Assembly (NCBI GenBank): GCA_045592905.1
Contig: JAZNVR010000015.1
Coordinates: 799 to 64,798 of the forward strand
DNA from: Candidatus Enterousia sp.
Lineage (GTDB): Bacteria; Pseudomonadota; Alphaproteobacteria; Rs-D84
DNA length: 64,000 bases
Direction of reading: 5' to 3'
Below, piece by piece: positions 2,815 to 53,448 of this stretch (positions are counted from its first letter, which is position 1; the number at the start of each line of letters is the position of its first letter). Under the pieces are notes generated by a model. That model did not search any database, was not told the DNA's origin, and saw only the letters and a program-made list of their open reading frames with translations. Made by a program: the position numbers and the translations under genes.

Positions 2815-2840
2815 AAAACCGGCAAATGCCGGTATTTTTA
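2815..2840. terminator. Bidirectional hairpin terminator between convergent genes
   Basis: The CCGGC-AAAT-GCCGG hairpin is flanked by an A-run on one side and a T-run on the other. It sits between stop 2811 (+) and stop 2838 (-). Confidence 0.65.
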
Positions 2841-3326
2841 TTCTTTTTCTATTATTATTTTTGATAAAACTGATGAATGACACGCAACTTGTTCTGCACA
2901 CCCCTTGGCACAGGCATCACAGTTTTTTGCTGTTAGTTCGGGATAAAAATACCCCTGTACCCATTTGGATTCACCGGGATATGTTCGCTTGCACGCACAA
3001 TTACCACCACGACCTGTATCGTATCCATTTGGCGGATTATCAGGATTAAACCCAACAAATTTACCACTTTCATCAAAAGTATTAGTGCACATACTTATAC
3101 CTTCTATCTTTCCCCACGGAAACGACACGCCCCAAACATTATTCACAGCATCTTTTTTATACGGTGCACCGTGAACTGAATCCGTAAGCATATCTACTGT
3201 TGTTTCTTTGATGCATATTTGTAATTCTTGGGTTGGCGTAATATTGGTATTATTTTTTACGCATATCGTTAAATCATCTGCATAACAATTTGTAACAAAC
3301 AAGAATACAAAAAATAATTTCTTCAT
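2838..3326 (-). CDS. Hypothetical small secreted Cys-rich protein (162 aa)
   Basis: Signal peptide MKKLFFVFLFVTNCYADDL and about 11 Cys. SD AAAGGA lies upstream, 12 nt after the stop of the preceding ORF. Confidence 0.6.
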   Translation of the reverse strand: MKKLFFVFLFVTNCYADDLTICVKNNTNITPTQELQICIKETTVDMLTDSVHGAPYKKDAVNNVWGVSFPWGKIEGISMCTNTFDESGKFVGFNPDNPPNGYDTGRGGNCACKRTYPGESKWVQGYFYPELTAKNCDACAKGCAEQVACHSSVLSKIIIEKE

Positions 3327-3338
3327 ATCATAAATCCT

Positions 3339-3848
3339 TTAATTTATTGAATGATATACACCGTCCAACAAACGAACGTTTATTGCTTCTGGTGATTGTC
3401 CTAAATCCATATTTATATAACACGTACCTTTTTCTAGGCTTATTGCAATTGCATGTTCTGTATTCTTATTTGCAAACAGATTATTGGATACATTAACAGA
3501 CGTATGAATAAACGTTGCAAAATCACACAGTGGCGGTGTCAATATACATTTAGATTCACCAACAGCATCAGATGTAACACTAGAACAATCTGGCAACGTG
3601 GTTTTATCCAGGGAATAACGGGCACCATTACAGCCAGTTGGTGAATTGTTATCCGTATTACAAAAGTAAGTTTTAGGACTTGCAGCCATAATACTGTAAC
3701 CGGTTGGACAAGAACCTGTTCTGGAAAAAATTATTTTTTTATATCCCAAATCTGGAAACACATTCCATAAACGATATCCCGACGGGCATTGCATATCTGC
3801 AAATAACACAGATGGCATAAACAACAAAAACAGAATACTTTGTTTCAT
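3339..3848 (-). CDS. Hypothetical small secreted Cys-rich protein (169 aa)
   Basis: Signal peptide MKQSILFLLFMPSVLFADMQC and about 9 Cys. SD GGGAG lies 7 nt upstream of the ATG. This is the first gene after the structured leader. Confidence 0.6.
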   Translation of the reverse strand: MKQSILFLLFMPSVLFADMQCPSGYRLWNVFPDLGYKKIIFSRTGSCPTGYSIMAASPKTYFCNTDNNSPTGCNGARYSLDKTTLPDCSSVTSDAVGESKCILTPPLCDFATFIHTSVNVSNNLFANKNTEHAIAISLEKGTCYINMDLGQSPEAINVRLLDGVYHSIN

Positions 3849-4830: not shown

Positions 4831-5505
4831 TTATCGGACTGGACTAATTCTAATTTCAACACGACGATTTGTCAGACGACCAATATCATCTTGGGCCGCA
4901 ATTGGACGTGCAGAACCACGACCAACAATAAACATACGGGCAGTATTTATACCATGCTGTGATAAATATACCGCAACACGCTGGGCCATATCAGATGAAA
5001 ATGCAACAGCGGCATTCGTATCACGCATTGCATCTGTATAGCCAGCAATTTCAATAAATGTTGCATCATATTCTTTTAATATATTCGTAATTATTTTTAA
5101 TGTATCTGCACCAGTTTGTGAAATATCTGCAACGTTTAATTCCATAATCGCATCACGCACCAATACAATGACAACGTCCGTACCAGCACGCTGAACAGAC
5201 ATGCCTGGTTTTCGCAACGCATCATACAATTTGTATTCCAACGATGCCATATATTGACGTGCCAACAAATTATCATTTGATATCTTGTCGCCATATTCTG
5301 ATTGTGCGTCTGGTTTTACAACCGCAGACATTAATCTGCCCCCGGCACCCAAATATACAGGCCGCTTCGCCAATCGTGCTGTTTCTGTCATATCTGTAAA
5401 ACTGGCACCATTAAGATAATGCGACCACGATTGTCTGTCTGGACTGCTGTATTGAACGCAACCAGAAATAAAAAGACATAGTAAAAATGATATTATTTTT
5501 ATCAT
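4831..5505 (-). CDS. OmpA/MotB-domain lipoprotein
   Basis: Lipobox LFISGC. The C-terminal peptidoglycan-binding OmpA-like domain reads IAGYTDAMRDTNAAVAFSSDMAQRVAVYLSQHGI...NRRVEIRI. Its ATG directly abuts the TAA of the pilin gene. Confidence 0.8.
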   Translation of the reverse strand: MIKIISFLLCLFISGCVQYSSPDRQSWSHYLNGASFTDMTETARLAKRPVYLGAGGRLMSAVVKPDAQSEYGDKISNDNLLARQYMASLEYKLYDALRKPGMSVQRAGTDVVIVLVRDAIMELNVADISQTGADTLKIITNILKEYDATFIEIAGYTDAMRDTNAAVAFSSDMAQRVAVYLSQHGINTARMFIVGRGSARPIAAQDDIGRLTNRRVEIRISPVR

Positions 5506-5964
5506 TTATTGAACGACAAACGAAACCTGGTTTGTATCTGTATCAAAACAGTTTGTTGTTATATCTGTCTCAAAACCATTTATTAATATTTTGGTCGCCC
5601 ATGTCGGCTGTACCGTTGCAAAATAATTACATTCACCATTTGTTAAATCAACCAAATTAATAGAAAAATAAGTCCCATCAATACTAGATTGCACAGACCA
5701 ATCTTTACCACCAATCGGTGATTTGTCAGAATTTATAGCACCAGCCTTAATCAAATAATCAACAGAAACACCCTGATACGAACCACGCATTTCCATTAAT
5801 ATTTTTGTGTTTTGTGCAATTTGTTTCAATTCTGCACTGGCAATGCTGCGAATTTGATTTTGACGCAACATATTATATACCCCCAAACCAGCAACCGTCA
5901 TAACACCAGTAATTGCCATAACACCAACAATTTCTATTAACGAACGTCCAGATTCTGTTCTCAT
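5506..5964 (-). CDS. Type IV pilin / pseudopilin-like protein (152 aa)
   Basis: Prepilin-type N-terminus MRTESG|RSLIEIVGVMAITGVMTVAG has a short leader, Glu at +5 and a hydrophobic helix. There is a C-terminal Cys pair (GECNYF...TTNCF). SD AGGAG lies inside the dnaX 3' end, and the ATG is 1 nt after the dnaX stop. Confidence 0.7.
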   Translation of the reverse strand: MRTESGRSLIEIVGVMAITGVMTVAGLGVYNMLRQNQIRSIASAELKQIAQNTKILMEMRGSYQGVSVDYLIKAGAINSDKSPIGGKDWSVQSSIDGTYFSINLVDLTNGECNYFATVQPTWATKILINGFETDITTNCFDTDTNQVSFVVQ

Positions 5965-5965: not shown

Positions 5966-7528
5966 CTATTTCACTCCTACGATTTGTGCATCTTCAAACA
6001 AACTCATGGCGCTAGCAACCAATGGGTCAGATTCTAATTCTTCCTGCTTTTGTTCTGAAACAGTTTGTGTGTTAACGCTTTCTGATACACGTGTTAAAAC
6101 CCATGTCTTGCCGGTTTTTTCTGACAACCAAACGGATAGTTTATGAACAAAATCCGCATCACCAACACGATCAAAGAATGTTATCTTGCCGTCTTCAAAT
6201 TCAGATATTTCAATATTATCACTAAAATAAGAATATAATAATATTTCCCTGTGTGATTGTAATGCAGCACCCAATTCATCCGCAGACGATAACGTCAAAT
6301 ACGTTTGTTTTTTATCAGGTTCTGCAACCGATTGCGACATTCTGTTTTCTAGAATATTTTTTACAGAACGTGCATGATTATCAGATTCTTGTTGTTTTAA
6401 TAAATCAGGAACAGATGGAATTTCTGCCACATGCATACACCTGATAATCAACATATCAAAACACTGCTTTTGATTGGTTGCAGCCTGCATTTCAGGAACG
6501 GACGCAACCATAACCTGCCATATTCTGGATAATGTATTCACACTGATACGTGCATTCAAATTGCAAATCTGTTCACGTTGATCTGCGGTATATGGTGAAC
6601 TAACCGTATCACCGGCATGTAATGCTGGATGCATACGTGTTGCCCAATGTGTCCATTCCATCATATCAGTCAGCAACATTGATAAATCTGCACCGTTGTT
6701 ATAAATAGAATCAACCTTGTCTAATGCGGCCGCAACATCACCAGATAATATAACCTTCATTAAATCAACGACAACACCACGATCTGCACGCTTTAACATA
6801 TCAAGAACAGCGGCTTCGTCAACATTACCACCGGTTTGTGCAATCGCCTGGTCCAACAAAGACAAGCCGTCACGAACAGATCCGTCTGCAGCACGTGCCA
6901 ACAAATCGTTTGCACCATCTGTTAGAACGACCTGCTCTTGCTGTGCAATCCATGCAAAATGTTTCTTTAACGTTTCAATTGGAACACGAACCAAATCAAA
7001 TCGCTGACAACGGGATAATATTGTAACAGGAACCTTTCTTATTTCTGTCGTTGCCAATATAAAAATCACGTGTGCAGGTGGTTCTTCAAGTGTTTTCAAC
7101 AACGCATTAAACGCAGATGTAGATAACATATGCACTTCGTCAATAATATATACTTTGTATCTGCCATTTGTAGGTCTGTATTGTGCAGCATCCAAAATAT
7201 CACGCATATTATCAACACCTGTGTGCGACGCTGCGTCAATTTCCATAACGTCAATATGCTGACCAGATGCAATCGTACGACAATTTTCACACGTACCACA
7301 TGGTGCAGATGTCGCCCTGTCCGAAGACAAACAATTTAATGCCTTGGCAAAAATACGTGCTGTACTAGTCTTACCAGTACCACGAATACCCGTAAAAATA
7401 TATGCATGTGCAATACGTGATGTTTCAATCGCAGTGGTAAGTGTTTTTACCAATACATCCTGACCAATAAGAGATTTGAAATCTTGACTGCGGTACTTAC
7501 GTGCTAAAACAGTATAATTATTATCCAT
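5966..7528 (-). CDS. dnaX: DNA polymerase III subunit gamma/tau
   Basis: Shows Walker A GIRGTGKTSTARIFAKALNC, the Zn module CGTCENC, DEVHMLS and SRCQRFD. The track ORF extends to 7582, but homologs begin at MDNNYTVLARKYR, which is ATG 7528. Confidence 0.93.
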   Translation of the reverse strand: MDNNYTVLARKYRSQDFKSLIGQDVLVKTLTTAIETSRIAHAYIFTGIRGTGKTSTARIFAKALNCLSSDRATSAPCGTCENCRTIASGQHIDVMEIDAASHTGVDNMRDILDAAQYRPTNGRYKVYIIDEVHMLSTSAFNALLKTLEEPPAHVIFILATTEIRKVPVTILSRCQRFDLVRVPIETLKKHFAWIAQQEQVVLTDGANDLLARAADGSVRDGLSLLDQAIAQTGGNVDEAAVLDMLKRADRGVVVDLMKVILSGDVAAALDKVDSIYNNGADLSMLLTDMMEWTHWATRMHPALHAGDTVSSPYTADQREQICNLNARISVNTLSRIWQVMVASVPEMQAATNQKQCFDMLIIRCMHVAEIPSVPDLLKQQESDNHARSVKNILENRMSQSVAEPDKKQTYLTLSSADELGAALQSHREILLYSYFSDNIEISEFEDGKITFFDRVGDADFVHKLSVWLSEKTGKTWVLTRVSESVNTQTVSEQKQEELESDPLVASAMSLFEDAQIVGVK

Positions 7529-7584
7529 CCTGTTGATATCCTTTTGGAAACAGCATAGCAAAAACCAACTAAATTTCAACAATT

Positions 7585-7610
7585 AAAACGCACCATATTC
7601 GGTGCGCTTT
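7585..7610 (-). terminator. Rho-independent terminator after the DUF4167 gene
   Basis: On the minus strand, CGCACC-GAATAT-GGTGCG is followed by TTTTAATT. Confidence 0.7.
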
Positions 7611-7613
7611 ATT

Positions 7614-7928
7614 TTATTTCAAATTTGTAATAAAATCTGGGAAACCAACGTCTTCATCATCTGTACCTTCTGTATTTTCCGTACTTTCTGTAACAGATGT
7701 TTCAATATCTTGAACAGATTTATCCTTAGGATCACGGGCACCGTCTATCTTTTCTTGCTCTGCACTAACAATACGACCATAATGTTCGGCCGCTTGCAAC
7801 AAGCGTTCACGTTCAATCTCATCCGAGATTTGACGAGCCTGATCAATGTATTGTTTTCTTTTTTGACGCCATTTATGGCAACGTTGAATCATCTGTCCAA
7901 CTGATGATTGATTTTTTTTATTTTGCAT
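7614..7928 (-). CDS. DUF4167-like small basic/acidic protein (alphaproteobacterial family)
   Basis: QYIDQARQISDEIERERLLQAAEHYGRIV matches the family core pattern Y..LARDA...GD...AE.YLQHAEHY.RI as I remember it. The N-terminus is basic and the tail is acidic. It is preferred over the antisense ORF 7602..7904. Confidence 0.6.
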   Translation of the reverse strand: MQNKKNQSSVGQMIQRCHKWRQKRKQYIDQARQISDEIERERLLQAAEHYGRIVSAEQEKIDGARDPKDKSVQDIETSVTESTENTEGTDDEDVGFPDFITNLK

Positions 7929-8084
7929 ATCTTTTCTTTTCTAAACAGGAAATAAACCTTTATGATAATACATCATAACATGATATATCATCAAACTTAA
8001 CAAACAGGATGTTAAATCATCTTAAAACCAATTGCAATAATTTTTTTCTGTTGCTATGCTGATATCAAGTAGGAGGGAGCCAAC

Positions 8085-9440
8085 TTGCACCAACAACGTG
8101 GGAATTTTTTATTGCAAGCATTACTGGCATTGGGATTGATATTTGCATTCGTGCCTTTCTTGGCACAACAATTATCAGAACAAAATATTGATACACGTAT
8201 GTATGCCACGACCAAACAAATTGAAACTGCACAAACAGCGGCCAGAATTTTTATTCGTGAAAACATTAATAATATACCATACGATACAACAATTATTTCT
8301 GGGGATGATTTTGCAGACGTACTTGAATCATACGGATTGCCGCTGGGATTTGTGCCACATACTGCAATGGGACAAGACATATCTTTAATAATACACAAAG
8401 ACCAATCTTTATTAACTGCATACCTGCAATTATCTGGCGGAAAACTAAATGGCATTCAACGTGCAGAACTAATTCGTCGTATTGGATTTTATGCTGCTGA
8501 AAATGGCGAAATGATTGATATTGGTATTGAATTACAAGATGCGTACTCTGATATTGTACGTCGCAATGAACCAGACATAGATAATAATGGTTTTTTATCT
8601 GATTTGAACATGAACAAGTTTTCTATTAATAACACAGGAAACATCAATGCGGTACGTGGCGAATTTGAAACATCTGAATACGACACATTGTCTGTATTTG
8701 GCGTAGAATCTGGACGCAAAGAAAAAAATAAGATATTAAATATTAACGCAGACAAAACTGTATTCCAAACAAAAACAGGGGAAGCAGCATTAACACTTAG
8801 CAGGGGAACATTGTATGCAGATAATGTATCCACAAAAACAATTTCTATGTTTGGTGACACCGGCCATTTTACAGCATTTGATGCCGCTGTTTATAATTTA
8901 TCTATGACCGCAGGACGTACAGCGTTTACAGGCCCCAAAGACTGGGAAGTTCGTGGTTCTGTTATATCAAACAATATCAATTTTAGCGTTGATAGACTTG
9001 ATATATATTCGCACTTGATGACAACACGTGGTCAAGACGTTTATGTTGACGAAGACACATTAACATACAGTTCGCATTCTGGTATTGAAACAAATAAAAT
9101 ATACACATCTAACATTACCATGCGGGATCAAATATCCAGTGCATTAAATTCCGGTATGACAGGGGCAGTAATATTAGACATTCGCCCTGCTGGAACATCT
9201 TTATTGCCAGATGTACTGGTTTCAGATATAAACAATGATGATTTCAGAATAATTGCCGACACAAAATCAGATGATGATACAGTAACTTCTTGCAAAGAAA
9301 TTATTCTGGATTTAGAAGGTGTATATAATAAAGAATCCTTGGCACAATATTTAATTTGCCAATACGTATATTGGCAAAGATTAGAAAAACGAATTGACAT
9401 AAAACAATGTTTGATGGCGGGACGTGATGATTGCATGTAA
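8085..9440 (+). CDS. Giant pilin-like protein 1 (451 aa): prepilin-type N-terminus plus large uncharacterised C-terminal region
   Basis: TTG start lies 8 nt after a strong SD AGGAGG (8071-8076). The N-terminus is MHQQRG|NFLLQALLALGLIFAFVPF. It shares the central motif LSDLNMNKFSINN with the next two ORFs. Confidence 0.65.
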   Translation: MHQQRGNFLLQALLALGLIFAFVPFLAQQLSEQNIDTRMYATTKQIETAQTAARIFIRENINNIPYDTTIISGDDFADVLESYGLPLGFVPHTAMGQDISLIIHKDQSLLTAYLQLSGGKLNGIQRAELIRRIGFYAAENGEMIDIGIELQDAYSDIVRRNEPDIDNNGFLSDLNMNKFSINNTGNINAVRGEFETSEYDTLSVFGVESGRKEKNKILNINADKTVFQTKTGEAALTLSRGTLYADNVSTKTISMFGDTGHFTAFDAAVYNLSMTAGRTAFTGPKDWEVRGSVISNNINFSVDRLDIYSHLMTTRGQDVYVDEDTLTYSSHSGIETNKIYTSNITMRDQISSALNSGMTGAVILDIRPAGTSLLPDVLVSDINNDDFRIIADTKSDDDTVTSCKEIILDLEGVYNKESLAQYLICQYVYWQRLEKRIDIKQCLMAGRDDCM

Positions 9441-10614
9441 AACAAAAATTTTCACAAATCAAAACACAGGTGCCAGCATAACAGAAGTTTTGTTGGCAAT
9501 GGCTATTATTGCCACTGCAGCCCCATTCGTATACAAACAAATCGCAAATACAAATCAAACATTACGTGATATTGCATTTGCCAAGGCAATCGTAAACACA
9601 CGTGACAGCGTGTTGAATTTTATTCGTATTAATCAAGATAAATGGCCAGAATCTGTCCAAATAAAATTAGATCAAAATGATTTGGATTCAATGAAAGTAA
9701 ATGCTGTTGCTGGGTTTATAGACAAATACCCAATTACAGACACATCTGTTACAGACGTATATCTGGCATTTAATATATCCAAATCTGATTTACAGGCAAA
9801 TAAAATCGCAAAACATATTGGTTCTGATGCTGCTGTCGTTTCAACAGATGGAATTGCATATGGAAACACGTGGGCTGTGACCGCACCAGACTTTGTACCA
9901 GGTGATATAATATATCGTATAACCAGAAACATCTCTGGCGAAGATACGTCAAAATATCTGCATCGTGCAACATCTGGCGAAGATGATTTTAATACAATGT
10001 TTCGTGATTTGAATATGGACAAACATAATATTCATAATATCGCAACTATTGTGGCACAATCTGCAAAAATAAAAAATGTAAATACTACATTTGTAAATTC
10101 AGATAATATTTCTGCAAATAATGTTTATTTTTCTGCTGGGGCAAATATCAGCGGGGAAAATGTTTCTTTTGGAGATTTGCGTATTTCTGGTGATATATAT
10201 GGTTTTAGAAATATATATGCAGATACACTAAACAATTCTGGATTCACAACAAATGGTCATATAATCGCAGACAGAGTTAATATATTAAACAGTATAAAAG
10301 TTGGTAATAATATTGTGTTAAAATCAGATTCTGCACGAACAATTTCTGGGTTTAATCATATTTCCACCAGCAATATTTCTGTTCCATTTATTTCCAGCGA
10401 AGAAATTATTTTTTATGATAATTTTGGTTTAACGATATCTGGTGAATTATTAATGTCTACATCAACACCATTCAGAATCGGCAACTGGTCTTTTCCATCA
10501 ACACGACCACCACAATTTACAAAATTTGATATCAGTCGTGCATCCAAACCAAATATGCCAAACCATAATGACTTTGATGCTGTAACAAAAACAGGATGGC
10601 AAAATACAAAATGA
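9427..10614 (+). CDS. Giant pilin-like protein 2 (about 395 aa)
   Basis: N-terminus MIACKTKIFTNQNTG|ASITEVLLAMAIIATAAPF has Glu at +5. It overlaps the end of the previous ORF (track start is GTG 9424; ATG 9427 fits the GGGA SD better). The C-terminal half is Asn/Ile/Ser-rich with roughly 11-residue periodicity. Confidence 0.65.
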   Translation: MIACKTKIFTNQNTGASITEVLLAMAIIATAAPFVYKQIANTNQTLRDIAFAKAIVNTRDSVLNFIRINQDKWPESVQIKLDQNDLDSMKVNAVAGFIDKYPITDTSVTDVYLAFNISKSDLQANKIAKHIGSDAAVVSTDGIAYGNTWAVTAPDFVPGDIIYRITRNISGEDTSKYLHRATSGEDDFNTMFRDLNMDKHNIHNIATIVAQSAKIKNVNTTFVNSDNISANNVYFSAGANISGENVSFGDLRISGDIYGFRNIYADTLNNSGFTTNGHIIADRVNILNSIKVGNNIVLKSDSARTISGFNHISTSNISVPFISSEEIIFYDNFGLTISGELLMSTSTPFRIGNWSFPSTRPPQFTKFDISRASKPNMPNHNDFDAVTKTGWQNTK

Positions 10615-11927
10615 ATATAAAACGTATATTTTTTTCTAGTCTGAAACATTCCAGCGGAAATATGTTGATAGAATTACTGCTAACTGTTGCGTTGGCAGTG
10701 GTTATTATACCGTTTATTTTTGAGTATCATCAAGACGCTGTAAAACGTGCAGAAAACATCGTGATAACAGAACAAATGTCCATAATAAAAAGTGCATTAG
10801 AACGACATATCGCCACAAATCGTGAAGAATTATTAAAGACTGTTGGCAGAAATATCACACGTGTTAATCTGCAAGACTTATCTGAATACGGTGTTCCAGA
10901 TACAATTATTGACCAAGGGCCAGACAAGTACCAAATCCGCATATTAAAAACAAATGATTCTGTTAATGGTGCAACACTTCAAGGAATAGTTGTTCGTGTT
11001 TCTGATGAAATTTCACCAATGCGAACACGTGAAATAGTGAAATTATCAGATGGTTCAATGGGATTTATTGATAACACACATGCATATGGCACGTTTGGAA
11101 CATGGCATACAGACACCGTTGATTTAGGTGTAAATATAAAACATGGAATCGTTGAAACAACCAATGTAAATCGTAACAACGCACTTTATTTATGGCGAAT
11201 TCCAACAAACAACCCAGACGATGCAAAAATGATGTCCGCACTAAATCTGGGGGGGCACGACATATTAAACACTCAAACATTAAATGCACAATTTGCTGAT
11301 TTTACCGAAGATATTTCTTCGCCAGAAATTGCGACATCTAATCTAATTTTTCAGACCAGAACCGCAATTGATACGACATACACCAGTAAATCAGGAACTG
11401 TTTCTGGAATGATGTCTTCTGATTCTAAAAATATGGAAGTATCCGGAATATTTTCATTGGCAGATACTGCAAAATTATCATCATTAACCACTGAAAATTT
11501 ATGGGTATCAAATCTTAATCTGTCCGGATTATCTGTTGATGCAGGCGATGATATTTCAACATTAAAAATAAACCAATCACTTGATATGACATCTGGACGT
11601 ATAGAGGCAATGTTTGTTAGTGTTGGTTTTACTGGTTCTGTTACACCACGGCTAATTGTATATAATAAAATAGAAGATTCTGTTAATTCTGATTATTTTT
11701 GGGATGCAGAATCCAAAACCGCAAAATTCGCAGACGCATCATTTGTTGAACTAAATCGTATGGCAACATTGGCCCATATTTCAGAAGCAGACAATAAAAC
11801 TTATTCTGGACAAATATTTGGTGCAGTTGCAGCAAATAAAAATGCAACAGTCGCTGATTTTATGAATGCAATCAAACAAATACAAAATAAAGTACAAGAA
11901 AAATATCAGAGTTTGCAATTACAATAA
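10596..11927 (+). CDS. Giant pilin-like protein 3 (about 440 aa)
   Basis: N-terminus ...SLKHSSG|NMLIELLLTVALAVVIIPF has Glu at +5. An alternative ATG at 10611 forms an ATGA overlap with the upstream stop. It shares the motif MSALNLGGHDILN with its paralogs. Confidence 0.65.
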   Translation: MAKYKMNIKRIFFSSLKHSSGNMLIELLLTVALAVVIIPFIFEYHQDAVKRAENIVITEQMSIIKSALERHIATNREELLKTVGRNITRVNLQDLSEYGVPDTIIDQGPDKYQIRILKTNDSVNGATLQGIVVRVSDEISPMRTREIVKLSDGSMGFIDNTHAYGTFGTWHTDTVDLGVNIKHGIVETTNVNRNNALYLWRIPTNNPDDAKMMSALNLGGHDILNTQTLNAQFADFTEDISSPEIATSNLIFQTRTAIDTTYTSKSGTVSGMMSSDSKNMEVSGIFSLADTAKLSSLTTENLWVSNLNLSGLSVDAGDDISTLKINQSLDMTSGRIEAMFVSVGFTGSVTPRLIVYNKIEDSVNSDYFWDAESKTAKFADASFVELNRMATLAHISEADNKTYSGQIFGAVAANKNATVADFMNAIKQIQNKVQEKYQSLQLQ

Positions 11928-11947
11928 TTTGTGATATATATATAACC

Positions 11948-12475
11948 ATGAAAATAAAATGCGACATTTGTAAAACAGAATTTAATATTGATACAGTTCC
12001 AACGACACCTGTAAAGTGTCCAATATGTGGCTATGTTTGGCGGGTTGAACAACAATCAAATAAAAATTCTTGGTTGATGTTTTTTGCATCATTATGTGCA
12101 TTGCTGTCTGCAATAATTTTTACTGTTGCTGTTATTACACAACATAAAATAAAACAAAATAAAACACCTGCGTTGGTTGCTGCTGTTGCAAGTGTTGAAA
12201 CAACAACAGATGACAAGGGAAATAAATTATTGGTCGTAAATGGCAGTATTACAAATACAACAGAACAAATATATGGTGTTCCAGATTTGCTAATTGTTTC
12301 TACTGACGATAAAAACAATGTGTTGGCGGTACAAAAGTTTATGCCAAAAACTCCTTTGTTGGATACTGGTGCAACAATGAAATTTAGCCATGTATTAAAT
12401 CCACAACCTGCAGGGGTAAAAAAAATATCTGCAAAACTGGCTGACTTTGAAACAACCAAGGAAGAAAACAAATGA
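11948..12475 (+). CDS. Zinc-ribbon (MJ0042-type) plus DUF3426-like membrane protein
   Basis: An N-terminal CxxC...CxxC ribbon (KCDICKTEF...KCPICGYVW) is followed by one TM segment. The C-terminal LLVVNGSITNTTEQIYGVPDLLIVSTDDKNNVL matches the DUF3426 pattern as I remember it. Confidence 0.6.
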   Translation: MKIKCDICKTEFNIDTVPTTPVKCPICGYVWRVEQQSNKNSWLMFFASLCALLSAIIFTVAVITQHKIKQNKTPALVAAVASVETTTDDKGNKLLVVNGSITNTTEQIYGVPDLLIVSTDDKNNVLAVQKFMPKTPLLDTGATMKFSHVLNPQPAGVKKISAKLADFETTKEENK

Positions 12476-12930
12476 AAAAGATACTGTTTTTATTGTTTAG
12501 TGTATTTTTTATAACTAATGTCGGTGCTGATGATTTATCACAACCACGCATCAGCATTTTTTCAACCAGCACAGATTGGCAGGCTGTAACAGGTTTAACT
12601 TTATCAGAATATCATGGAAAATTTATTCCTGATTCTAAATTAGTTGGACGTGGACTGGTACTGTATTATTTGGATGGATTTCCATGTTATGGTCTGGGCG
12701 AAGGCGTTCGTGCATGGATTGGTCCAAACGGACAAAATCACGAACATATACGCATCGCATGCGTTGCAAAGCCAACAGAAATAAAATTCGCATACCGCAA
12801 TGCAACACGTGATGCAGACGAAGATGTTACAACAGGAATTTTAATATGTCCAACATCTGGAAATGGTCGTGATATAACTATTGACTTGTCAGAATGTACC
12901 GTCGGACCGGATTGGAAAGAATATAAATAG
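12472..12930 (+). CDS. Hypothetical small secreted protein (152 aa)
   Basis: It starts in an ATGA overlap with the upstream stop. Signal peptide MKKILFLLFSVFFITNVGADDL is closely similar to that of the 2838..3326 protein. It has 4 Cys. Confidence 0.55.
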   Translation: MKKILFLLFSVFFITNVGADDLSQPRISIFSTSTDWQAVTGLTLSEYHGKFIPDSKLVGRGLVLYYLDGFPCYGLGEGVRAWIGPNGQNHEHIRIACVAKPTEIKFAYRNATRDADEDVTTGILICPTSGNGRDITIDLSECTVGPDWKEYK

Positions 12931-12938
12931 GCTTTATT

Positions 12939-13898
12939 ATGACAAGCATGCGACAATTTACCGTATCAGATATCAGCGAACCAATACGATTGGATAAATT
13001 TTTATCCGCACAATTGCCTGAATTTTCACGCAGCGAAATCCAAAAATTTAATGTATCCCGTAATAATATATCTGGGGTAAAATTCTCTGAAAAGGTTCGT
13101 AATGGCGATACAATTATTATAGAAATCCCAGAAATGCCATCTGATATCGCAACGGATAATATTTCAACTGATTTTGATTTGGATATTCTGTTTGAAGACG
13201 ACGATATTATTGTGATTAACAAACCTCGTGGTGTGGTAATGTATCCATCTGCCGGAAACAAAACAGGTACACTGGTACAAAATGTATTGGCACATACACA
13301 TTTGTCACTGTTGGGCGGAAATGTTCGTCCTGGGGTTGTTCACAGACTGGATAAAGACACCAGTGGTGTCATGGTTTTTGCTAAATCAGATGCAGCATAT
13401 CGTGGTTTAATAAAAACATTTTCCGAACACAAATTGACCAGAAAATATGTTACATTTGTGTGGGGGGTCCCAAATTGGGAAATTGCAGATATAACAGGCA
13501 ATATCGCACGCTCGTCCAGAAATCGTCAAAAAATGACTATGGTAAAAACCGGTGGCAAACCATCACATACAGAAGCAAGCGTAATAAACGTATGGCCACG
13601 TGTGGGAATTTCTCAAATGCGTTGTACATTATTCACAGGTCGTACACATCAAATACGTGTACACATGTCTGCACATGGATTCCCTGTATTATGCGATCCT
13701 TTGTATGGTCGTGCATCATCAAAACTGGGTTCTGTAAAAAATCCTGAATTGTTAGATTTTCTTAAAACACACGATGGGCAAATGTTACACGCAGAAGTAT
13801 TGGATTTCGCACATCCTGTTACGGGCGAACAAATGCATTTCAAATGTCGCATGCCAGACGATATGTCTGAATTAAAATATATTCTTGATGAAATTTAA
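12939..13898 (+). CDS. rluD: RluA-family 23S rRNA pseudouridine synthase (RluD-like) with S4 domain
   Basis: Catalytic motif HRLDKDTSGVMVFAKSD and TGRTHQIRVHM are present. The N-terminal region is S4-like. Confidence 0.8.
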   Translation: MTSMRQFTVSDISEPIRLDKFLSAQLPEFSRSEIQKFNVSRNNISGVKFSEKVRNGDTIIIEIPEMPSDIATDNISTDFDLDILFEDDDIIVINKPRGVVMYPSAGNKTGTLVQNVLAHTHLSLLGGNVRPGVVHRLDKDTSGVMVFAKSDAAYRGLIKTFSEHKLTRKYVTFVWGVPNWEIADITGNIARSSRNRQKMTMVKTGGKPSHTEASVINVWPRVGISQMRCTLFTGRTHQIRVHMSAHGFPVLCDPLYGRASSKLGSVKNPELLDFLKTHDGQMLHAEVLDFAHPVTGEQMHFKCRMPDDMSELKYILDEI

Positions 13899-18978: not shown

Positions 18979-20289
18979 TTATTTGGCTTTTCTAATAATT
19001 TCAATGATTGTTTTTGTGTTTTTCTTGGCACTGGCCCATAACGAAGACAGATCTTGTTGTATACCAGTCCCAAAATCAGCAGAAATCTTGCCACCAAAAT
19101 CATTTGCATATGTTGTCGCCTTGCTGGCAAACCACCACGTTAACGCAGACACCAATGCAACAATCCAGAAATTCTGATTATTAACAGACGGTATTAACGT
19201 TTCATTATCAACGACAAATACCGTAGACAACATTGCGGCACAAAATGCAATAATAACAGATAACGCAATAAAATGAAGGGCGGCATTTGTATATCTTGAT
19301 ATTTGAGTATTCAGTGTTTCTGCACTGAATAATTTTAGAAACCCATTAAAAATATCACCTGCGATTCCTTTGTATGTGGTTTTTGCAGTCGTTTCTGCAA
19401 CCGCTGTAAATGGCAACATTATTATTCCCAGGAACAAATCTGCAATGACACCAAACGCAATAAACGCAAATCTCCATGCCAAACAAAGAAATCCACCAAT
19501 AAATATTACCCCAGATAAAAATACAAATAAACTTTTACCAATTCCATAATTTAGCCAATTCCAACCCATTTTTATTGCCGTATAACAAAAACCTGAAATA
19601 CGTGTTGGAACACACATAATATTAGCAGCACTGGCAGAATCAATAATTGCATGATCTGACATATGAATCTTTGTATATTGATGTATCGCTTCGCATGTAT
19701 CAGGCAAACTAACCCCTGTAACAAATGCAGTTGCGTCCAATATCAAATCCGAAAACATTGTTGCTAAAAACATTATTGGCGACACAATCAACATAAATGT
19801 CTGGGCGGGACCAATCGCTAATACAGCGACCCACATTCCAACAGCCAATCCTTTTTTTAGAATTTCTGTTACCTTTTCTTTTGCCTTGTTTTGCCCAGAA
19901 ATTATTGTATAACCTTCAAAAAAAATCCAAAAACCGTATGCAATTACTATAAATATTATCGTAAAACGTACCAAAGACATATCTAAAATATGTGCAATAT
20001 GCGAAAACGCATTTATAAATGACATTCCTATTTTTGCTGAAATCGGAACATAATCTGCAACCAATTGTTGGGTTGTATTGCCACGAAATTGATCTAAATC
20101 ATATGTCAGTTTGTTCAGAAATAATTTACGGTTATTTTCTGTAGCCCACGAACCATAGTCACCAATATCCGCCATTCCAACTGCATCTGTTGCCATCAAG
20201 TTACTGGTTGCAGAAAATGCAGATGTGCATAAAAACACAGCCATAACAGCAATTATTATTTTTGATAAAAATTTACGTAACACATTCAT
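18979..20289 (-). CDS. TrbL/VirB6-like polytopic membrane protein, paralog 5 of 5
   Basis: It has a signal peptide, multiple TM segments and the conserved segment LGIIMLPFTAVAETTAKTTYKGIAGDIFNGF. This resembles Agrobacterium VirB6 IGPLILVGYIFDRTRDIAAKWIGQLI as I remember it. Confidence 0.55.
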   Translation of the reverse strand: MNVLRKFLSKIIIAVMAVFLCTSAFSATSNLMATDAVGMADIGDYGSWATENNRKLFLNKLTYDLDQFRGNTTQQLVADYVPISAKIGMSFINAFSHIAHILDMSLVRFTIIFIVIAYGFWIFFEGYTIISGQNKAKEKVTEILKKGLAVGMWVAVLAIGPAQTFMLIVSPIMFLATMFSDLILDATAFVTGVSLPDTCEAIHQYTKIHMSDHAIIDSASAANIMCVPTRISGFCYTAIKMGWNWLNYGIGKSLFVFLSGVIFIGGFLCLAWRFAFIAFGVIADLFLGIIMLPFTAVAETTAKTTYKGIAGDIFNGFLKLFSAETLNTQISRYTNAALHFIALSVIIAFCAAMLSTVFVVDNETLIPSVNNQNFWIVALVSALTWWFASKATTYANDFGGKISADFGTGIQQDLSSLWASAKKNTKTIIEIIRKAK

Positions 20290-21731
20290 TATTTTTTACC
20301 AATTGCACTTGTTATTTTTTCTGTTACATAGACAGGTAATCGCCATACCTGGGTACCCAAATCTTTAATCCAGGTACCATAATCAAACATTTCTGCCCCT
20401 TCCTTGCCCAACAAATTATCAATCTTTGGACTGATAGCATAATAATATAAAAAGAACAAGAATGCCATCATCAGCAAGAAATCCCAACCATTTGACATAA
20501 AGTCAAAAGCACCTGAATATATACGTTCCACTTCGGCACGTCGTGCAGTAAAACAATTCTTAAATTTTTCTTTATCCATTTCACCGTCAACCAGTGCAAC
20601 CTGTTCACATGTTGAAAATACATTTATCACAGACAATGTTTGAGCATCCGGATTTTCTGGTTTTGCACCCATTAATGGTGGTAAAATCGCACTAAAGCCA
20701 TCGTTTGGTGATGGGAAATACGAATCCGCAGCATAAGATACAGTTGTATAAATTATCAGAACTTTTAATGTAATTGCAACTATACGAACGGCACTGGACA
20801 CCAACATATCAACAGCCTTGGAAACCAAACCTTTGGCAACAGACCATGTATCTTCAAATGCATACGCTGCCAAAAACAACGGTAAAAAGATTATTATAAA
20901 TATCAACTTAAACACAACAGATAATATCTGAAAGAACAAATCAAAACCAATTATCAAAAACATTACCACTAATAACAAACCGGAAATCCACGTAAATGCA
21001 CCACCACCCATATCCAACCATGCATAGTTCATCAACGCAAATCCACCCGCTGCACCAGCCAACATGACACTGTTTATATTTCCAATTACACACATAAATG
21101 GTTGTAAAATTGGATTTAATAAATCCTGGGGCCTATCAGATGTTTGTGTAAACGCATTACACTGTGCAGAATCATTTATTCCTGTGGCAGCCATTGATAA
21201 TTCTGCCCCAACAAACATAACGGGTTTTATCGTTATTTCCGAAACTGTTTTTAATGACGCTGTTCCGCCCATCCCAATTGCACCAATTAGCGTACCAACA
21301 ATCAGCAATCGCAACGCCTGTTTCCAAACCTTGTCAAACCATGGTTTAAATTCTAGTTTTTTAGCAGACGCATCTGCTTTGGTTGTTTCATTTGCTGCCT
21401 TGTAGATATGCTGTATGGCACTGATAAACAAAAACAAACCAAAACCAACAACAATTAACACCCATAAGCCATCCAGCATCGCTGTCCAAAAACGCTGAGT
21501 CGCATCCCCAAGGATTCCAAATAACTGTCCAATATACTTACACATAAAACAACCATTAGCAGATGCAATATCACCATTTTCAACACCAGCAGCCACCAAG
21601 AAATTATTTACACTGGTATACGTCAGCGATGCACCGCTAAGCGATGATGATAAATACCAAATCCCCACCCCCAGCACAATCAGCCACATCAGGATTTTTA
21701 CGCCCAGCAAAATCAATTTCGCTTTCAGCAT
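20289..21731 (-). CDS. TrbL/VirB6-like polytopic membrane protein, paralog 4 of 5
   Basis: Multi-TM protein with N-terminal CFMC followed by an amphipathic helix. The conserved segment is IIFLPLFLAAYAFEDTWSVAKGLVSKAVDML. Its stop and start abut the neighbouring genes. Confidence 0.55.
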   Translation of the reverse strand: MLKAKLILLGVKILMWLIVLGVGIWYLSSSLSGASLTYTSVNNFLVAAGVENGDIASANGCFMCKYIGQLFGILGDATQRFWTAMLDGLWVLIVVGFGLFLFISAIQHIYKAANETTKADASAKKLEFKPWFDKVWKQALRLLIVGTLIGAIGMGGTASLKTVSEITIKPVMFVGAELSMAATGINDSAQCNAFTQTSDRPQDLLNPILQPFMCVIGNINSVMLAGAAGGFALMNYAWLDMGGGAFTWISGLLLVVMFLIIGFDLFFQILSVVFKLIFIIIFLPLFLAAYAFEDTWSVAKGLVSKAVDMLVSSAVRIVAITLKVLIIYTTVSYAADSYFPSPNDGFSAILPPLMGAKPENPDAQTLSVINVFSTCEQVALVDGEMDKEKFKNCFTARRAEVERIYSGAFDFMSNGWDFLLMMAFLFFLYYYAISPKIDNLLGKEGAEMFDYGTWIKDLGTQVWRLPVYVTEKITSAIGKK

Positions 21732-22915
21732 TATTTATCATCCTTTTTCTTGCCAAGAATTGTTTTTCCTGTATTTACAACAATATCAAAAGCATCTTTG
21801 CTTAATGTCATTATATCAGATGCAAATTGTTCGCTGTATTTATTATTCTCTTCAACAGAAAAGACAGATAATACCATTTTAGTAATTTGTGGTATTTGTT
21901 CAAATACAAAATTCAGAATATATGTTAATGCGACACAACTAATAAACGTCATCGCCTGTAAATTTTCTGTATTCAAATCATCTGCATAAATCTGACCGCT
22001 GATAATCACATCCATCAAATCAACAACCGATGCATCTGGCGAAGAAAAGAATTTCGCAATAATAATCATTATTATCGTATATGTTAAAACAACAGAACCC
22101 AATGTTACAATTGCATTTATTAAATTCTTTATTTGTGCAACCCCAACAGATTTTCCGATTTCACCAAACCATTTTGGCACTTCTTTGACATCCTTGAATA
22201 TCACCATAATCAACGACAATGGAAAAAAGAACGCAAAAAACGCCATTGCAATAATAATGTCTGCAAAATAAACACAAAATCTAAAAAACAATTTTAGAAA
22301 TTCCCACGATAAAATCAGACCAATAAAAAATAATAAAGCATGTTTTATTAACATACCAATACTGGTTAACGCATCCCAACTAAAAGCATTATCCATTAAT
22401 GCAATCCCAAGTTTTATATATCTTTGGAATTGCGTTACTGTTGTTTTCATTAACATAATAATTTTATCACGTAATTCTGTACGATATAAACCTTCTTGTG
22501 TTATGTTTATTGGTTGATATGTTACTTGTTCTGATACAAGTTCATCGGACGTATTTATCATTATTTGTGAATAAGACAATGTAATACTTGCAACCGGTTC
22601 AAATATAATAGTGCTTATAACACGTGGCACAGTAATACCCGCACTGACCAAAGTTAAAACAACAACTGAATTTACAAAAACCTTCTGAACAGAATTTTTC
22701 ATCCATGGGTCAGAAATACCACTTTTGAAGTTTTTCCAAATTGCATTAATGACAAAGATTGTGAACAAAAACGCAAACAGTATCAGACACAACTCTGTCA
22801 AATTACTATAAACAGATGCAGCCGACACAGACACAATCTGAAACAAACGGTCAAATACAGCACAGCCCCAACACTGAACTACTTTATCTGTTAAAGATAC
22901 CATTAATTCATTCAT
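21731..22915 (-). CDS. TrbL/VirB6-like polytopic membrane protein, paralog 3 of 5
   Basis: Multi-TM protein with N-terminal CWGC. The conserved segment is FFFPLSLIMVIFKDVKEVPKWFGEIGKSVG. Confidence 0.5.
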   Translation of the reverse strand: MNELMVSLTDKVVQCWGCAVFDRLFQIVSVSAASVYSNLTELCLILFAFLFTIFVINAIWKNFKSGISDPWMKNSVQKVFVNSVVVLTLVSAGITVPRVISTIIFEPVASITLSYSQIMINTSDELVSEQVTYQPINITQEGLYRTELRDKIIMLMKTTVTQFQRYIKLGIALMDNAFSWDALTSIGMLIKHALLFFIGLILSWEFLKLFFRFCVYFADIIIAMAFFAFFFPLSLIMVIFKDVKEVPKWFGEIGKSVGVAQIKNLINAIVTLGSVVLTYTIIMIIIAKFFSSPDASVVDLMDVIISGQIYADDLNTENLQAMTFISCVALTYILNFVFEQIPQITKMVLSVFSVEENNKYSEQFASDIMTLSKDAFDIVVNTGKTILGKKKDDK

Positions 22916-24189
22916 TTGCCTTTTACCACTTTGAATGCTTCGCTTATTTGTTTCTTTATATTTTTGGCATCACCCCATAACGTCTTCGTATTACCAACTA
23001 CATTGTTGTACAATGTATCCATACCCTTGCCGACGTACATATCTAATTGTTTGCGTGTTAAATCAAATATCTTGAACATTAAATAAAACGTCATTATCGC
23101 AGATAACCATAAAACAGAATGCTGGCCAAAACCAAAGCCCGCAGTCACACCCTGTTGCGGAACATTACTGATGGCACTGCCACCTGCTGCAACCACAAAA
23201 ACAGATGAATTCCATTGAAACAACGCTTTTATAATTGCAACGTTTATACACAAAATAAAAGCACACGCAATCATTGTTACCAATAATTGTTGCACTGCCT
23301 TGGTTATACCAGAAAAAGCGGGCCATATATCAAACCATTTATCGCTTTGCTTAAATACGTACGACAACACATAAAAAGGATACAAAACCAATTGAATACC
23401 AAAATTAAAAATACCTTGAATAACCAATAAGGCCATAAAAATATTACATCCAACAAACGTAACAATTAATATCAATCCTGTAATAATATTTAGCAAATCT
23501 TCACCACCATGCGGAATTGGTACCATTAATCCACGCAAACCACTTAACAGAAAATCAAAACCATTCTTTATAATCTTGTTATTGACGTGCGATAAGTCTG
23601 CAACAGGTTGTGTCAAAAATTTGCATGCATCTTCTGACAACCACGCCTTTTCAACAATATCATTCGGACATGACACAGCATCTGCTGTTGTATCAACGCC
23701 ATTTATCGATTCTAAAATATGATTTGTATACACCGCACCAAATTCCAAAAAGGGATTTACCACCCAATTCGTCATATACACAGGTTTTAATTGCAATAAT
23801 ATAACTGTTGCAAACACAGCACGAAATCCAGACTTGAAAATATTATTAAGCATTTTCGCTGGTGTCATACTGCCATCTGATAATTCACCACCACCAGAAA
23901 AACCTAAAAAAGCAACCCAACTTTTCGGCAAATACATTTTTGTTAAAGACAATGCAATAGATATCGCAAAAAAAGACCATATAAAAACATAAATAATACC
24001 CAAGCGATTACCATCACCAACAAAGAATTCATACATTCCTGTAGCAACCATCATTAACGCATCCAGCACCATTGGCACAAAAGGCGATAAATTTAGTGCA
24101 TCAACCAGATTATCTGCACGTGCCACAGACGGCATAAAAAATACCGTAATAACAATCAGTAATGATAAAAACTTTTTAATAAAAAACAT
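22912..24189 (-). CDS. TrbL/VirB6-like polytopic membrane protein, paralog 2 of 5 (first gene of the minus-strand run)
   Basis: Signal peptide MFFIKKFLSLLIVITVFFMPSVARA, multiple TM segments, and the conserved segment LVLYPFYVLSYVFKQSDKWFDIWPAFSG. SD GAGAGA and a TGTGATATAAT box lie upstream. Confidence 0.55.
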   Translation of the reverse strand: MFFIKKFLSLLIVITVFFMPSVARADNLVDALNLSPFVPMVLDALMMVATGMYEFFVGDGNRLGIIYVFIWSFFAISIALSLTKMYLPKSWVAFLGFSGGGELSDGSMTPAKMLNNIFKSGFRAVFATVILLQLKPVYMTNWVVNPFLEFGAVYTNHILESINGVDTTADAVSCPNDIVEKAWLSEDACKFLTQPVADLSHVNNKIIKNGFDFLLSGLRGLMVPIPHGGEDLLNIITGLILIVTFVGCNIFMALLVIQGIFNFGIQLVLYPFYVLSYVFKQSDKWFDIWPAFSGITKAVQQLLVTMIACAFILCINVAIIKALFQWNSSVFVVAAGGSAISNVPQQGVTAGFGFGQHSVLWLSAIMTFYLMFKIFDLTRKQLDMYVGKGMDTLYNNVVGNTKTLWGDAKNIKKQISEAFKVVKGK

Positions 24190-24214
24190 TCTCTCTGTAT
24201 ATATTATGTTTTCA

Positions 24215-24223
24215 ATTATATCA
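24215..24223 (-). promoter_or_regulatory. Extended -10 box TGATATAAT for the minus-strand VirB6-like operon
   Basis: The reverse complement of attatatca is exactly TGATATAAT. A 25-nt leader with SD GAGAGA follows before ATG 24189. Confidence 0.5.
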
Positions 24224-24239
24224 CATTTGAATCAAAATA

Positions 24240-24248
24240 TGATATACT
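24240..24248 (+). promoter_or_regulatory. Extended -10 box TGATATACT for the divergent VirB6-like gene
   Basis: TGaTATACT lies 8 nt upstream of ATG 24257 with no SD, suggesting a leaderless transcript. Confidence 0.4.
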
Positions 24249-24256
24249 TAAAAACA

Positions 24257-52563: not shown

Positions 52564-53448
52564 TTATTTTGTTATTTTTTCAACCAACTCAAATAATTGT
52601 GGACGTGTGTTAAACATCAATGTTATTTGTCCAGAACCGCCCCGTCTTTCAGTCAATTTAACTTGCACCCCCAGGGTCTTTGCTATTTTCTTTTCAATAT
52701 CACGAACCGTTGCAGAATCAATCGTTTTTAATGTATGTTTTTTTGCACTGGCTGCACGTGGTGCTTTCTTTACCAATTTGTCCGTATCTGCAACGGACAT
52801 ACCAGACGCAATTATTTTGTGTGCTAATTCTTCTGGATTTGCTGCAACAGCAATTGTACGTGCATGCGATGCAGACAGATTGCCCTGCTCTACTAAATTT
52901 TTTACAGAATCTGGCAATGATGTTAAACGCAACATATTACGAATATAACTTTCTGATTTGCCAATAAGACGCGAAACATCCGGCAATTCATAATCACAAC
53001 ATTCCATCAAATTTTTATACGCATTTGCCTCTTCTATCGGGTTCAAGTTTTCACGCTGAACATTTTCTATCAATGCAATTTCCATTGCATTTGTATTATC
53101 AATGGATTTTACTAATGCTGGAATTTCAGACAATCCTGCCATTTTTGATGCACGATATCTGCGTTCACCGGCAACAATTTCATACATATATGGACGTCCA
53201 GACACAGTACGTAGTAAAATCGGTTGCAAAACCCCCTTCTCTTTTATAGATACAGACAAATCTGCCAATTCAGAATCATCAAACGTTTTGCGTGGCTGAT
53301 CCGGGTTTGCACCAATTTGCGACAGCGGAATTTGTTTTACAACAATACGTTCCGATGGGGTTAATAACGATATATCTGGTATTGCACCACGTGCCGCTTG
53401 TAAATCAGCCAAACCACGTCCCAATCCAAATTTATTTGCCATATTCAT
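52564..53448 (-). CDS. parB: Chromosome partitioning protein ParB
   Basis: GLGRGLADL, NPDQPRKTFD, the ParB box VAGERRYRAS, and the HTH region. Confidence 0.92.
   Translation of the reverse strand: MNMANKFGLGRGLADLQAARGAIPDISLLTPSERIVVKQIPLSQIGANPDQPRKTFDDSELADLSVSIKEKGVLQPILLRTVSGRPYMYEIVAGERRYRASKMAGLSEIPALVKSIDNTNAMEIALIENVQRENLNPIEEANAYKNLMECCDYELPDVSRLIGKSESYIRNMLRLTSLPDSVKNLVEQGNLSASHARTIAVAANPEELAHKIIASGMSVADTDKLVKKAPRAASAKKHTLKTIDSATVRDIEKKIAKTLGVQVKLTERRGGSGQITLMFNTRPQLFELVEKITK

Follow-up and report, generated by a model that had tools for sequence, protein, structure and literature searches.

Three PilV-like pilin proteins encoded in tandem in Candidatus Enterousia, probably minor pilins of a chromosomal type IVb pilus

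Introduction

What do three consecutive genes for large pilin-like proteins do in a small bacterial chromosome, and to which machinery do their products belong? This question is raised by a 64-kb stretch of DNA from Candidatus Enterousia (here called the window), in which three open reading frames (ORFs), named P1, P2, and P3, follow one another on the + strand. An earlier examination of the DNA letters, referred to below as the sequence-only reading, described the three products as pilin-anchored paralogues of no described family, each carrying a large beta-solenoid-like passenger, at the head of a five-gene run. Candidatus Enterousia, a gut alphaproteobacterium with a genome of ~0.9 Mb, belongs to the order Rs-D84; the genomes range from approximately 0.75 to 1.0 Mb and lack respiration and flagella, and dependence on a partner is suspected (PMC12306168).

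Here, we propose that the trio consists of paralogous PilV-like minor pilins and that their type IVb pilus is chromosomally encoded and has no shufflon, a reading to which we assign a probability of roughly 0.7. All three proteins display an invariant prepilin signal and the constant-region motif of PilV, and a PilS-like pilin is encoded 2 kb away. Further components encoded in the lineage are PilO, a protein whose gene takes the pilP position, an ATPase of the PilQ type that has two CxxC pairs, and a platform protein of the PilR type. The observation is real and well conserved, yet it is not a new family; it is a triplicated chromosomal variant of the PilV/type IVb theme. PilV of the IncI1/IncI2 plasmids (R64, TP114) and of Salmonella Typhi (PF04917) is a minor pilin of the type IVb thin pilus and also serves as its tip adhesin.

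Results

Prepilin signal and predicted pilin fold

The N-termini and mid-protein motifs quoted in the sequence-only reading lie at the positions given there. P1 has the leader MHQQRG/N (the slash marks the predicted cleavage) and the motif RRNE..FLSDLNMNKFSINN; P2 combines the cleavage site G/ASITE with YLHR..NTMFRDLNMDKHNIHN, and P3 combines G/NMLIE with YLWR..MMSALNLGGHDILN. Residues were counted in orthologue sets of 75 (P1), 80 (P2), and 83 (P3) sequences. The glycine at position -1 is found in 75/75 P1 sequences, in 79/79 P2 sequences that bear a residue there (1 of the 80 is gapped), and in 83/83 P3 sequences. Residue +5 is Gln in 75/75 P1 orthologues and Glu in all P2 (80/80) and P3 (83/83) orthologues, and Pro(+22) is equally invariant (75/75, 80/80, and 83/83, respectively). 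This conservation of the N-terminal signal and the motif is far above chance. As a hydrophobic helix follows the glycine in each protein, the trio carries the class III signal, P1 with Gln in place of Glu. In addition, four Cys residues near the C-terminus of P1 (403, 425, 442, and 450) are invariant among its orthologues.

BLASTP similarity among P1 to P3 is weak by itself. Profile comparison (hhalign) relates the three to each other with a probability of 84 to 98% over the N-terminal 180 to 270 residues only; the earlier claim of three paralogues holds for this part alone. When the wider family is used as a profile, its match is to the alpha1 helix of pilins with solved structures, among them Geobacter PilA (E = 2e-5), PilE1, and GspG. 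Searches of P1, P2, P3, and the 152-amino-acid (aa) secreted protein encoded downstream (see below) against sequences in the PDB returned nothing useful.

Structure prediction, which the sequence-only reading had proposed as a check, was carried out for P3 with AlphaFold2 (AF2). A model based on 11 close orthologues only reached a predicted local distance difference test (pLDDT) score of 40 and was dropped. With a deeper alignment, residues 19 to 74 are predicted to form a helix, followed by a beta-sheet up to approximately residue 190 (pLDDT, ~90), and the C-terminus is modeled as a helical domain (residues 350 to 440; pLDDT, ~90). For P3 only, the predicted arrangement of a long helix and an antiparallel beta-sheet is that of a pilin fold. 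The invariant signal, the alpha1 profile match, and this P3 model agree with the earlier description of pilin-like proteins to which a large additional part is joined at the C-terminus.

For that additional part, Asn/Ser/Ile/Gly-rich segments with a period of approximately 11 residues had been described. The composition is found in the middle of P2, which is rich in Asn, Ile, Ser, and Gly; the period is not, as a lag-11 autocorrelation is absent in P1, P2, and P3. Matches of the P3 model to left-handed beta-helix enzymes (Foldseek E values of at least 0.9) are nonsignificant. A beta-solenoid passenger is an unproven structural suggestion.

Membership in the PilV family

By sequence comparison, P1, P2, and P3 are members of the PilV/Shufflon_N family, and the earlier statement that they represent no described family has to be abandoned. 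Against Pfam Shufflon_N (PF04917), P3 scores 27.4 bits (cut-off, 27.5) and P2 14.1 bits (E = 0.032), while P1 gives no match. Several P3 orthologues have a precomputed PF04917 match, including a 438-aa protein that is 100% identical over 99% of P3. Using hhalign, canonical PilV is aligned with P1, P2, and P3 at probabilities of 93%, 97% (96.7%), and 99%, respectively, across a region from the cleavage site through the motif YLxR..LNxM..MxxxxIxN. When aligned to the wide PilV-like family, the values rise to 99.3 to 100%, with P1 at 99.3%. The 'LNM..H.I.N' motif of the trio is the PilV signature YLxR...LNxM...MxxxxIxN.

A tblastn search of P3 against 72,556 plasmids matched 153 records, with 26 to 28% identity over 200 to 260 aa. 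Among the 15 matches listed, 13 fall inside genes annotated pilV, whose products are described as 'shufflon system plasmid conjugative transfer pilus tip adhesin PilV'. PilV of a Yersinia plasmid, for instance, is 28% identical to P3 over 232 aa. A P3 profile search of 1.84 billion representative proteins retrieved only 226 clusters, many of which are alike only in the N-terminal ~250 residues and have C-termini that differ greatly in length. Shufflon_N is matched by 9/57 of the distant relatives found with the P3 profile, down to 4e-69, and one relative is named PilV by NCBI. In five proteins of the P3 profile search (P0220, P0222, P0235, P0253, and P0270; 1000 to 1240 aa), a PilV-like N-terminus (..QKGSMMVEALAMLGLISMVTPVLYKK..) is joined to a C-terminal part that is very long and unrelated.

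Positions 7500 to 13500 of the window contain only chance-level repeats, no recombinase gene lies nearby, and the C-termini of the trio are kept across species. The locus is chromosomal and without a shufflon.

Partner pilin and assembly genes

Approximately 2 kb upstream of the trio, the opposite strand encodes a small type IVb pilin (Table 1), a fourth pilin-type gene that the sequence-only reading had overlooked while listing the trio correctly. Among 72 orthologues, Gly(-1) and Glu(+5) are both invariant (72/72 each), as is a C-terminal Cys pair. The Pfam family PilS is matched by 46/72 of them (best E = 2.6e-5) and the N-methylation motif (N_methyl) by 23/72; the protein encoded in the window by itself stays under the PilS cut-off (E = 0.004). 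The profile of the small pilin also gives weak matches to solved pilins, including TcpA. These similarities make it the likely counterpart of the PilS-type major pilin of an R64-type system. A motif scan of the window revealed no pilin-like ORF besides this gene and the trio. In every species, a gene for a 224-aa OmpA-type lipoprotein lies directly downstream of the small pilin gene, and in one related locus (L088) it is located between the small pilin gene and ompH-pilOPQR. Judging by position only, this lipoprotein may assist the pilus in the cell envelope.

Pfam searches with nearly all ORFs of at least 140 aa detected no pil, gsp, or tad assembly gene in the 64 kb, and in tblastn searches with the eleven Pil proteins of the Yersinia plasmid, only PilV matched the window. 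The earlier remark that pilB/C/D/Q, gsp, and tad genes are missing is therefore correct for the window. It does not extend to the lineage, as relatives carry pilO-pilP-pilQ-pilR on the same contig as the trio or adjoining the pilin genes. PilQ of an Acetobacter plasmid matched (tblastn) the edge of three related loci. The operon found there encodes, in this order, a PAP_PilO protein (420 aa), a secreted coiled-coil protein of 223 to 234 aa, a T2SSE ATPase (543 aa), and a T2SSF platform protein (356 aa). The coiled-coil protein occupies the pilP position, and the gene order is that of R64 pilO-P-Q-R.

The ATPase contains GPTSSGKST (Walker A), GEIRT (Walker B region), GHNVWTTLHAN, and two CPxC pairs, motifs typical of ATPases that serve assembly in pilus and type II secretion systems. 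It is 30% identical to plasmid PilQ over 424 aa (E = 2e-44), and the platform protein is 25% identical to plasmid PilR over 350 aa (E = 3e-27). More than 120 clusters contain the ATPase at an identity of at least 85%, all with a Pfam T2SSE match, and this level of identity indicates strong purifying selection. On contig JAZQCH010000001.1 of an Enterousia metagenome-assembled genome (MAG), pilOPQR lies approximately 140 kb from the trio. In three species (loci L088, L030, and L042), P3, P2, and P1 are contiguous with DUF4167, dnaX, the small pilin, OmpA, OmpH, pilO, pilP, pilQ, and pilR. The operon occurs in three housekeeping contexts, next to ompH/PPDK, a tetratricopeptide repeat (TPR) gene/gidA, or lpxC/gyrB, indicating that these small genomes often reshuffle their gene order while modules stay intact. 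On the basis of these matches, PilO, a PilQ ATPase, and a PilR platform can be assigned to the lineage, not to the window. Among the gene families flanking 83 related loci, none is pilus related.

Two candidates for a prepilin peptidase were examined and rejected: a 198-aa protein with six predicted membrane helices and no Pfam match (61128 to 61724), which is the only small polytopic protein of the window left without annotation and lacks a GxGD motif, and the product of a 189-aa gene following pilR, which has no membrane helix. The genes for the peptidase, the secretin, PilL, PilM, and PilT may lie elsewhere or be absent.

The composition of this gene set bears on another interpretation, namely, that the apparatus is a secretion device, a type II-like pseudopilus in which the trio caps a short piston expelling, e.g., the 152-aa secreted protein, instead of contributing to an adhesive fiber outside the cell. 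The N-terminal helices of the trio indeed give weak matches to the pseudopilins GspI and GspK and to ComGG, P1 resembles GspK in lacking Glu(+5), and the same run includes, by translational coupling, a Cys-rich secreted protein. Secretion of TcpF and CofJ by type IVb pili is known, and neither a secretin nor a retraction ATPase was seen in the window and ~1.7 Mb of related sequence. However, the assembly genes correspond to those of R64 and not to Gsp, and they include a member of the pilus-specific PAP_PilO family; the partner pilin matches PilS and TcpA-type pilins; and other Alphaproteobacteria have the trio without the secreted protein. We regard a secretion piston as quite unlikely.

Conservation and distribution

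In a scan of one genome per species, relatives of P3 were found in 116 stretches, 80 loci of which were kept. Nearly all are MAGs named Candidatus Enterousia or 'Alphaproteobacteria bacterium' from the guts of ruminants, horses, and other animals, and the identity of P3 across them ranges from 52% to 79%. Every locus on a long enough contig (~80 species) shows the same syntenic block, in which the genes for the OmpA-like lipoprotein, the 152-aa pilin, dnaX, and DUF4167 stand on one side and P1, P2, P3, the zinc-ribbon protein, the secreted protein, and rluD on the other. The pilin-like proteins are 50 to 83% identical across species, compared to 70 to 90% for dnaX.

Three MAGs of other Alphaproteobacteria encode a trio of ~490, 420, and 490 to 540 aa among housekeeping genes, followed by recO (Table 1). 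The best matches of the genes are P1, P2, and P3 in order, except that P3 is slightly ahead of P1 for the first gene of L084, and all three genes of these distant trios encode Glu(+5). The zinc-ribbon and secreted-protein genes are not present at the trio locus of these MAGs. The occurrence of the trio in more distant Alphaproteobacteria implies that it is older than Enterousia.

The R64 thin pilus is a mating or contact pilus, and a comparable role could be envisaged here, with the pilus gripping donor and target for VirD4-dependent transfer of DNA or protein by the type IV secretion system of the genome. On plasmids, pilV adjoins I-type transfer genes. The window contains the gene for a VirD4/TraG coupling protein of a type IV secretion system among housekeeping genes (48327 to 50567); in some relatives, this gene is located ~3 kb from pilOPQR, and in others it lies beside the OmpA-pilin-dnaX block. 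In two publications, PilV-family proteins are presented as conjugation adhesins (PMC9045228, PMC5297154). Nevertheless, no relaxase, shufflon, Rci recombinase, or Dot/Icm-type transfer genes were found beside the pilin or pilOPQR genes, and the linkage to VirD4 varies between genomes. Moreover, the fixed synteny among housekeeping genes in ~80 species is unlike a mobile element. A mating pilus is, in our view, very unlikely.

The same conservation weighs on the idea that the pilins are not assembled at all, their N-terminal helix being merely an inner-membrane anchor of periplasmic or surface proteins and the machinery a decaying remnant. In favor of this idea are the scattered pilus genes, the strong reduction of the genome (PMC12306168), and the fact that a peptidase and a secretin were not found in the window and the ~1.7 Mb of related sequence. 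The invariance of Gly(-1), Glu(+5), and Pro(+22) would be unexpected for a simple anchor, however, and all parts are intact and conserved in ~80 species, with the ATPase at least 85% identical. No accumulation of pseudogenes is reported in these genomes either (PMC12306168). We consider unassembled anchors highly improbable. The piston, mating-pilus, and anchor explanations each fit fewer observations than a chromosomal type IVb pilus with three PilV-like minor pilins.

Organization of the locus

The consecutive, overlapping or abutting same-strand ORFs reported for the trio are real, and the start and end points of all features are listed in Table 1. An AGGAGG sequence is read at 8071 to 8076, 8 nucleotides (nt) ahead of the TTG start of P1, and sites resembling promoters by consensus match only are located at 7942 to 7969 and 7962 to 7991. 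The start of P2 overlaps the end of P1. From the comparison of orthologues, P3 most likely starts at ATG 10611, which would create an ATGA overlap with the stop codon of P2. A 20-nt gap separates P3 from the zinc-ribbon gene, which in turn shares an ATGA overlap with the gene for the 152-aa protein, as had been noted before. Order and spacing of the five-gene run were likewise described correctly, but its end at 12930 was not: the same-strand run extends further, since rluD begins 8 nt downstream. rluD is probably cotranscribed with the run; it is a housekeeping gene outside the functional pilus set. Terminator-like sites within the run are not more common than in shuffled sequence. In the window, rluD is followed by rlmN. 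In 56/83 related loci, this place is taken by a gene for a secreted protein of ~1060 to 1160 aa that is rich in Ala, Ser, Thr, and Cys and has no Pfam match (e.g., L001, 13365 to 16844).

The 175-aa protein encoded after the trio has an N-terminal zinc ribbon of the MJ0042 type (CxxC...CxxC), which a single transmembrane helix connects to a C-terminal DUF3426-like domain, in agreement with its first description as a zinc-ribbon/DUF3426-like membrane protein. The window protein by itself stays under the Pfam cut-offs; Zn_ribbon_4 is matched by 79/81 of its orthologues and DUF3426 by 34/81, and the four Cys residues are invariant. The gene always follows the trio in Enterousia, unlike in the more distant Alphaproteobacteria. 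A profile of the zinc ribbon (11948 to 12050) also gives a weak match to the Myxococcus gliding protein AgmX (GltJ; PDB 7zok; E = 0.015), which may merely reflect the common ribbon type. The 152-aa protein has the signal-peptide-like N-terminus expected from its earlier description as secreted, as well as four invariant Cys residues, and no family match was found for it.

Table 1. Coordinates of the PilV-like trio, its neighbors, and related loci. Positions refer to the window unless a related locus (L number) is given.
Feature	Coordinates	Strand	Description
P1	8085-9440	+	PilV-family pilin-like protein, 451 aa, TTG start
P2	9424-10614	+	PilV-family pilin-like protein, 396 aa, likely start ATG 9427
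P3	10596-11927	+	PilV-family pilin-like protein, 443 aa from 10596, ~438 aa from ATG 10611
Zn-ribbon gene	11948-12475	+	175-aa bitopic protein
Secreted-protein gene	12472-12930	+	152 aa, predicted secreted
rluD-like gene	12939-13898	+	Pseudouridine synthase; begins 8 nt past the 152-aa gene
Divergent intergenic region	7929-8084		Ahead of trio; promoter-like hexamers and Shine-Dalgarno sequence
PilS-like pilin	5506-5964	-	152 aa, type IVb, candidate major subunit, leader MRTESG/RSLIE
OmpA-type lipoprotein	4831-5505	-	224 aa, peptidoglycan-binding domain
Trio of other Alphaproteobacteria	L084 3774-8025; L086 5447-9809		Same three-gene PilV-like set; third locus within L084-L086
pilO-pilP-pilQ-pilR	L088 8039-12704; L089 8051-12704; L093 8072-12707		Three housekeeping contexts

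Other features of the window

Approximately one-third of the window proteins have no Pfam match. Among the more conspicuous genes are two that encode small secreted Cys-rich proteins of 162 and 169 aa without a family match (2838 to 3326 and 3339 to 3848). Five paralogous polytopic membrane proteins are encoded at 18979 to 25546, four in tandem on the - strand and one divergently. They comprise 394 to 480 aa with 6 to 8 predicted helices, share ~20% mutual identity, and matched neither Pfam families nor, as a profile, PDB entries. They might be VirB6-like, a guess that takes the duplicated VirB6 genes of Rickettsiales as its model. Finally, parB, parA, and a gidB-type methyltransferase gene stand together at 52564 to 54990, which suggests that the window lies close to the chromosomal replication origin.

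Discussion

In the proposed pilus, a prepilin peptidase would cleave the trio proteins after the glycine, the PilS-like pilin would build the shaft, and the three PilV-like proteins would occupy the tip jointly, in a complex for priming or adhesion. P1 would probably be outermost, capping the tip complex for attachment, because it alone lacks Glu(+5), which normally pairs with the next subunit above. The conserved, beta-rich C-terminal domains would bind a conserved surface structure on the partner or host cell. The zinc-ribbon/DUF3426 protein and the small secreted protein would be coexpressed accessories, the latter possibly docking on the tip in the manner of CofJ and TcpF of other type IVb pili. 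Such a pilus probably lets the cell attach to its partner.

Several observations weigh against this interpretation. None of the three window proteins reaches the gathering cut-off of PF04917, with P3 falling 0.1 bit short. The middle of the P3 model (residues 200 to 350) is beta rich at a low-confidence pLDDT of 50 to 60, and Foldseek found no significant relative of the model among PDB and viral structures, the best match being E. coli 'PilM' (E = 0.17). The trio is conserved evenly along its length without a variable C-terminal part, unlike plasmid PilV with its variable C-termini. As to the machinery, tblastn searches for a prepilin peptidase (PilU), the secretin PilN, PilL, PilM, and PilT gave no match in the window and the ~1.7 Mb of related sequence, and the presence of pilOPQR in the window's own genome is presumed from its relatives. 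The steps involving a tip complex and adhesion are drawn by analogy. Furthermore, a survey of Rs-D84 genomes reports type IV pili only for another lineage (PMC12306168).

A bolder extension would be that the chromosomal set of three large minor pilins in fixed order, as found in uncultured Alphaproteobacteria, is the ancestral form of PilV, and that it forms a heterotrimeric type IVb tip, maybe loaded with the secreted protein, that holds Enterousia on its partner. We find this doubtful. If true, it would offer a parallel to the pili of Patescibacteria epibionts, and PilV would not primarily be a plasmid conjugation adhesin.

Rs-D84 comprises uncultured gut bacteria with genomes under 1 Mb and a suspected dependence on partners, for which the mechanism of contact has so far been a blank. 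A type IVb pilus that bears three conserved PilV-like proteins at its tip is a candidate for the organelle of attachment, and one that is concrete and can be tested. With it, the range of the PilV family would grow beyond plasmid conjugation and include a core function of the chromosome. The PDB contains no structure of a PilV-family protein, which makes the trio a clean target for structural studies of fiber capping by large minor pilins.

Compared to known systems, the 175-aa protein has the same architecture as the MJ0042 zinc ribbon plus DUF3426 proteins (PF13717/PF11906), for which we know of no established function; a connection with pili is apparent in Enterousia alone, and there by position only. 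The idea of several different minor (pseudo)pilins acting side by side has precedents in the GspK-GspI-GspJ and type IVa PilV/W/X tip complexes, in which one subunit without Glu(+5) caps the fiber, as P1 might. GspK, which caps the type II pseudopilus and lacks Glu(+5), has a size of ~330 aa; the other proteins of these complexes are much smaller than the trio. The likeness ends with the helix, and the assembly genes of Enterousia are R64-type, not Gsp or PilMNOPQ.

TcpB of the toxin-coregulated pilus (TCP) of Vibrio cholerae and CofB of colonization factor antigen III (CFA/III) of enterotoxigenic Escherichia coli (ETEC) are large minor pilins of the type IVb class; each trimerizes at the tip, initiates assembly, and binds a secreted partner, TcpF or CofJ. 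The trio would conform to the same concept of a pilin domain joined to large beta-rich domains, low copy number, and a tip location, and a secreted protein is likewise encoded in the same run. Sequence searches of the PDB and Foldseek revealed no sequence or fold match between TcpB or CofB and the trio. Whereas TcpB and CofB are homotrimers, Enterousia has three different genes, and the three copies would come from three paralogues.

The closest relation is to PilV of the plasmids. Enterousia encodes three tandem paralogues instead of a single pilV gene, located on the chromosome among housekeeping genes and apart from the assembly genes, and, unlike plasmid pilV, without an adjoining I-type conjugation system and without shufflon segments, sfx-like repeats, or an Rci recombinase. 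The C-terminal halves are unrelated to those of plasmid PilV and conserved rather than variable, and Gln(+5) of P1 is a further difference. Nonetheless, PilV of plasmids and Salmonella Typhi resembles the trio in size (~400 to 470 aa), in its prepilin-type signal, and in an N-terminal 'constant' domain with YLxR...LNxM...MxxxxIxN, and plasmid PilV likewise has as its partners a PilS-like pilin and assembly proteins of the PilO/PilQ/PilR type.

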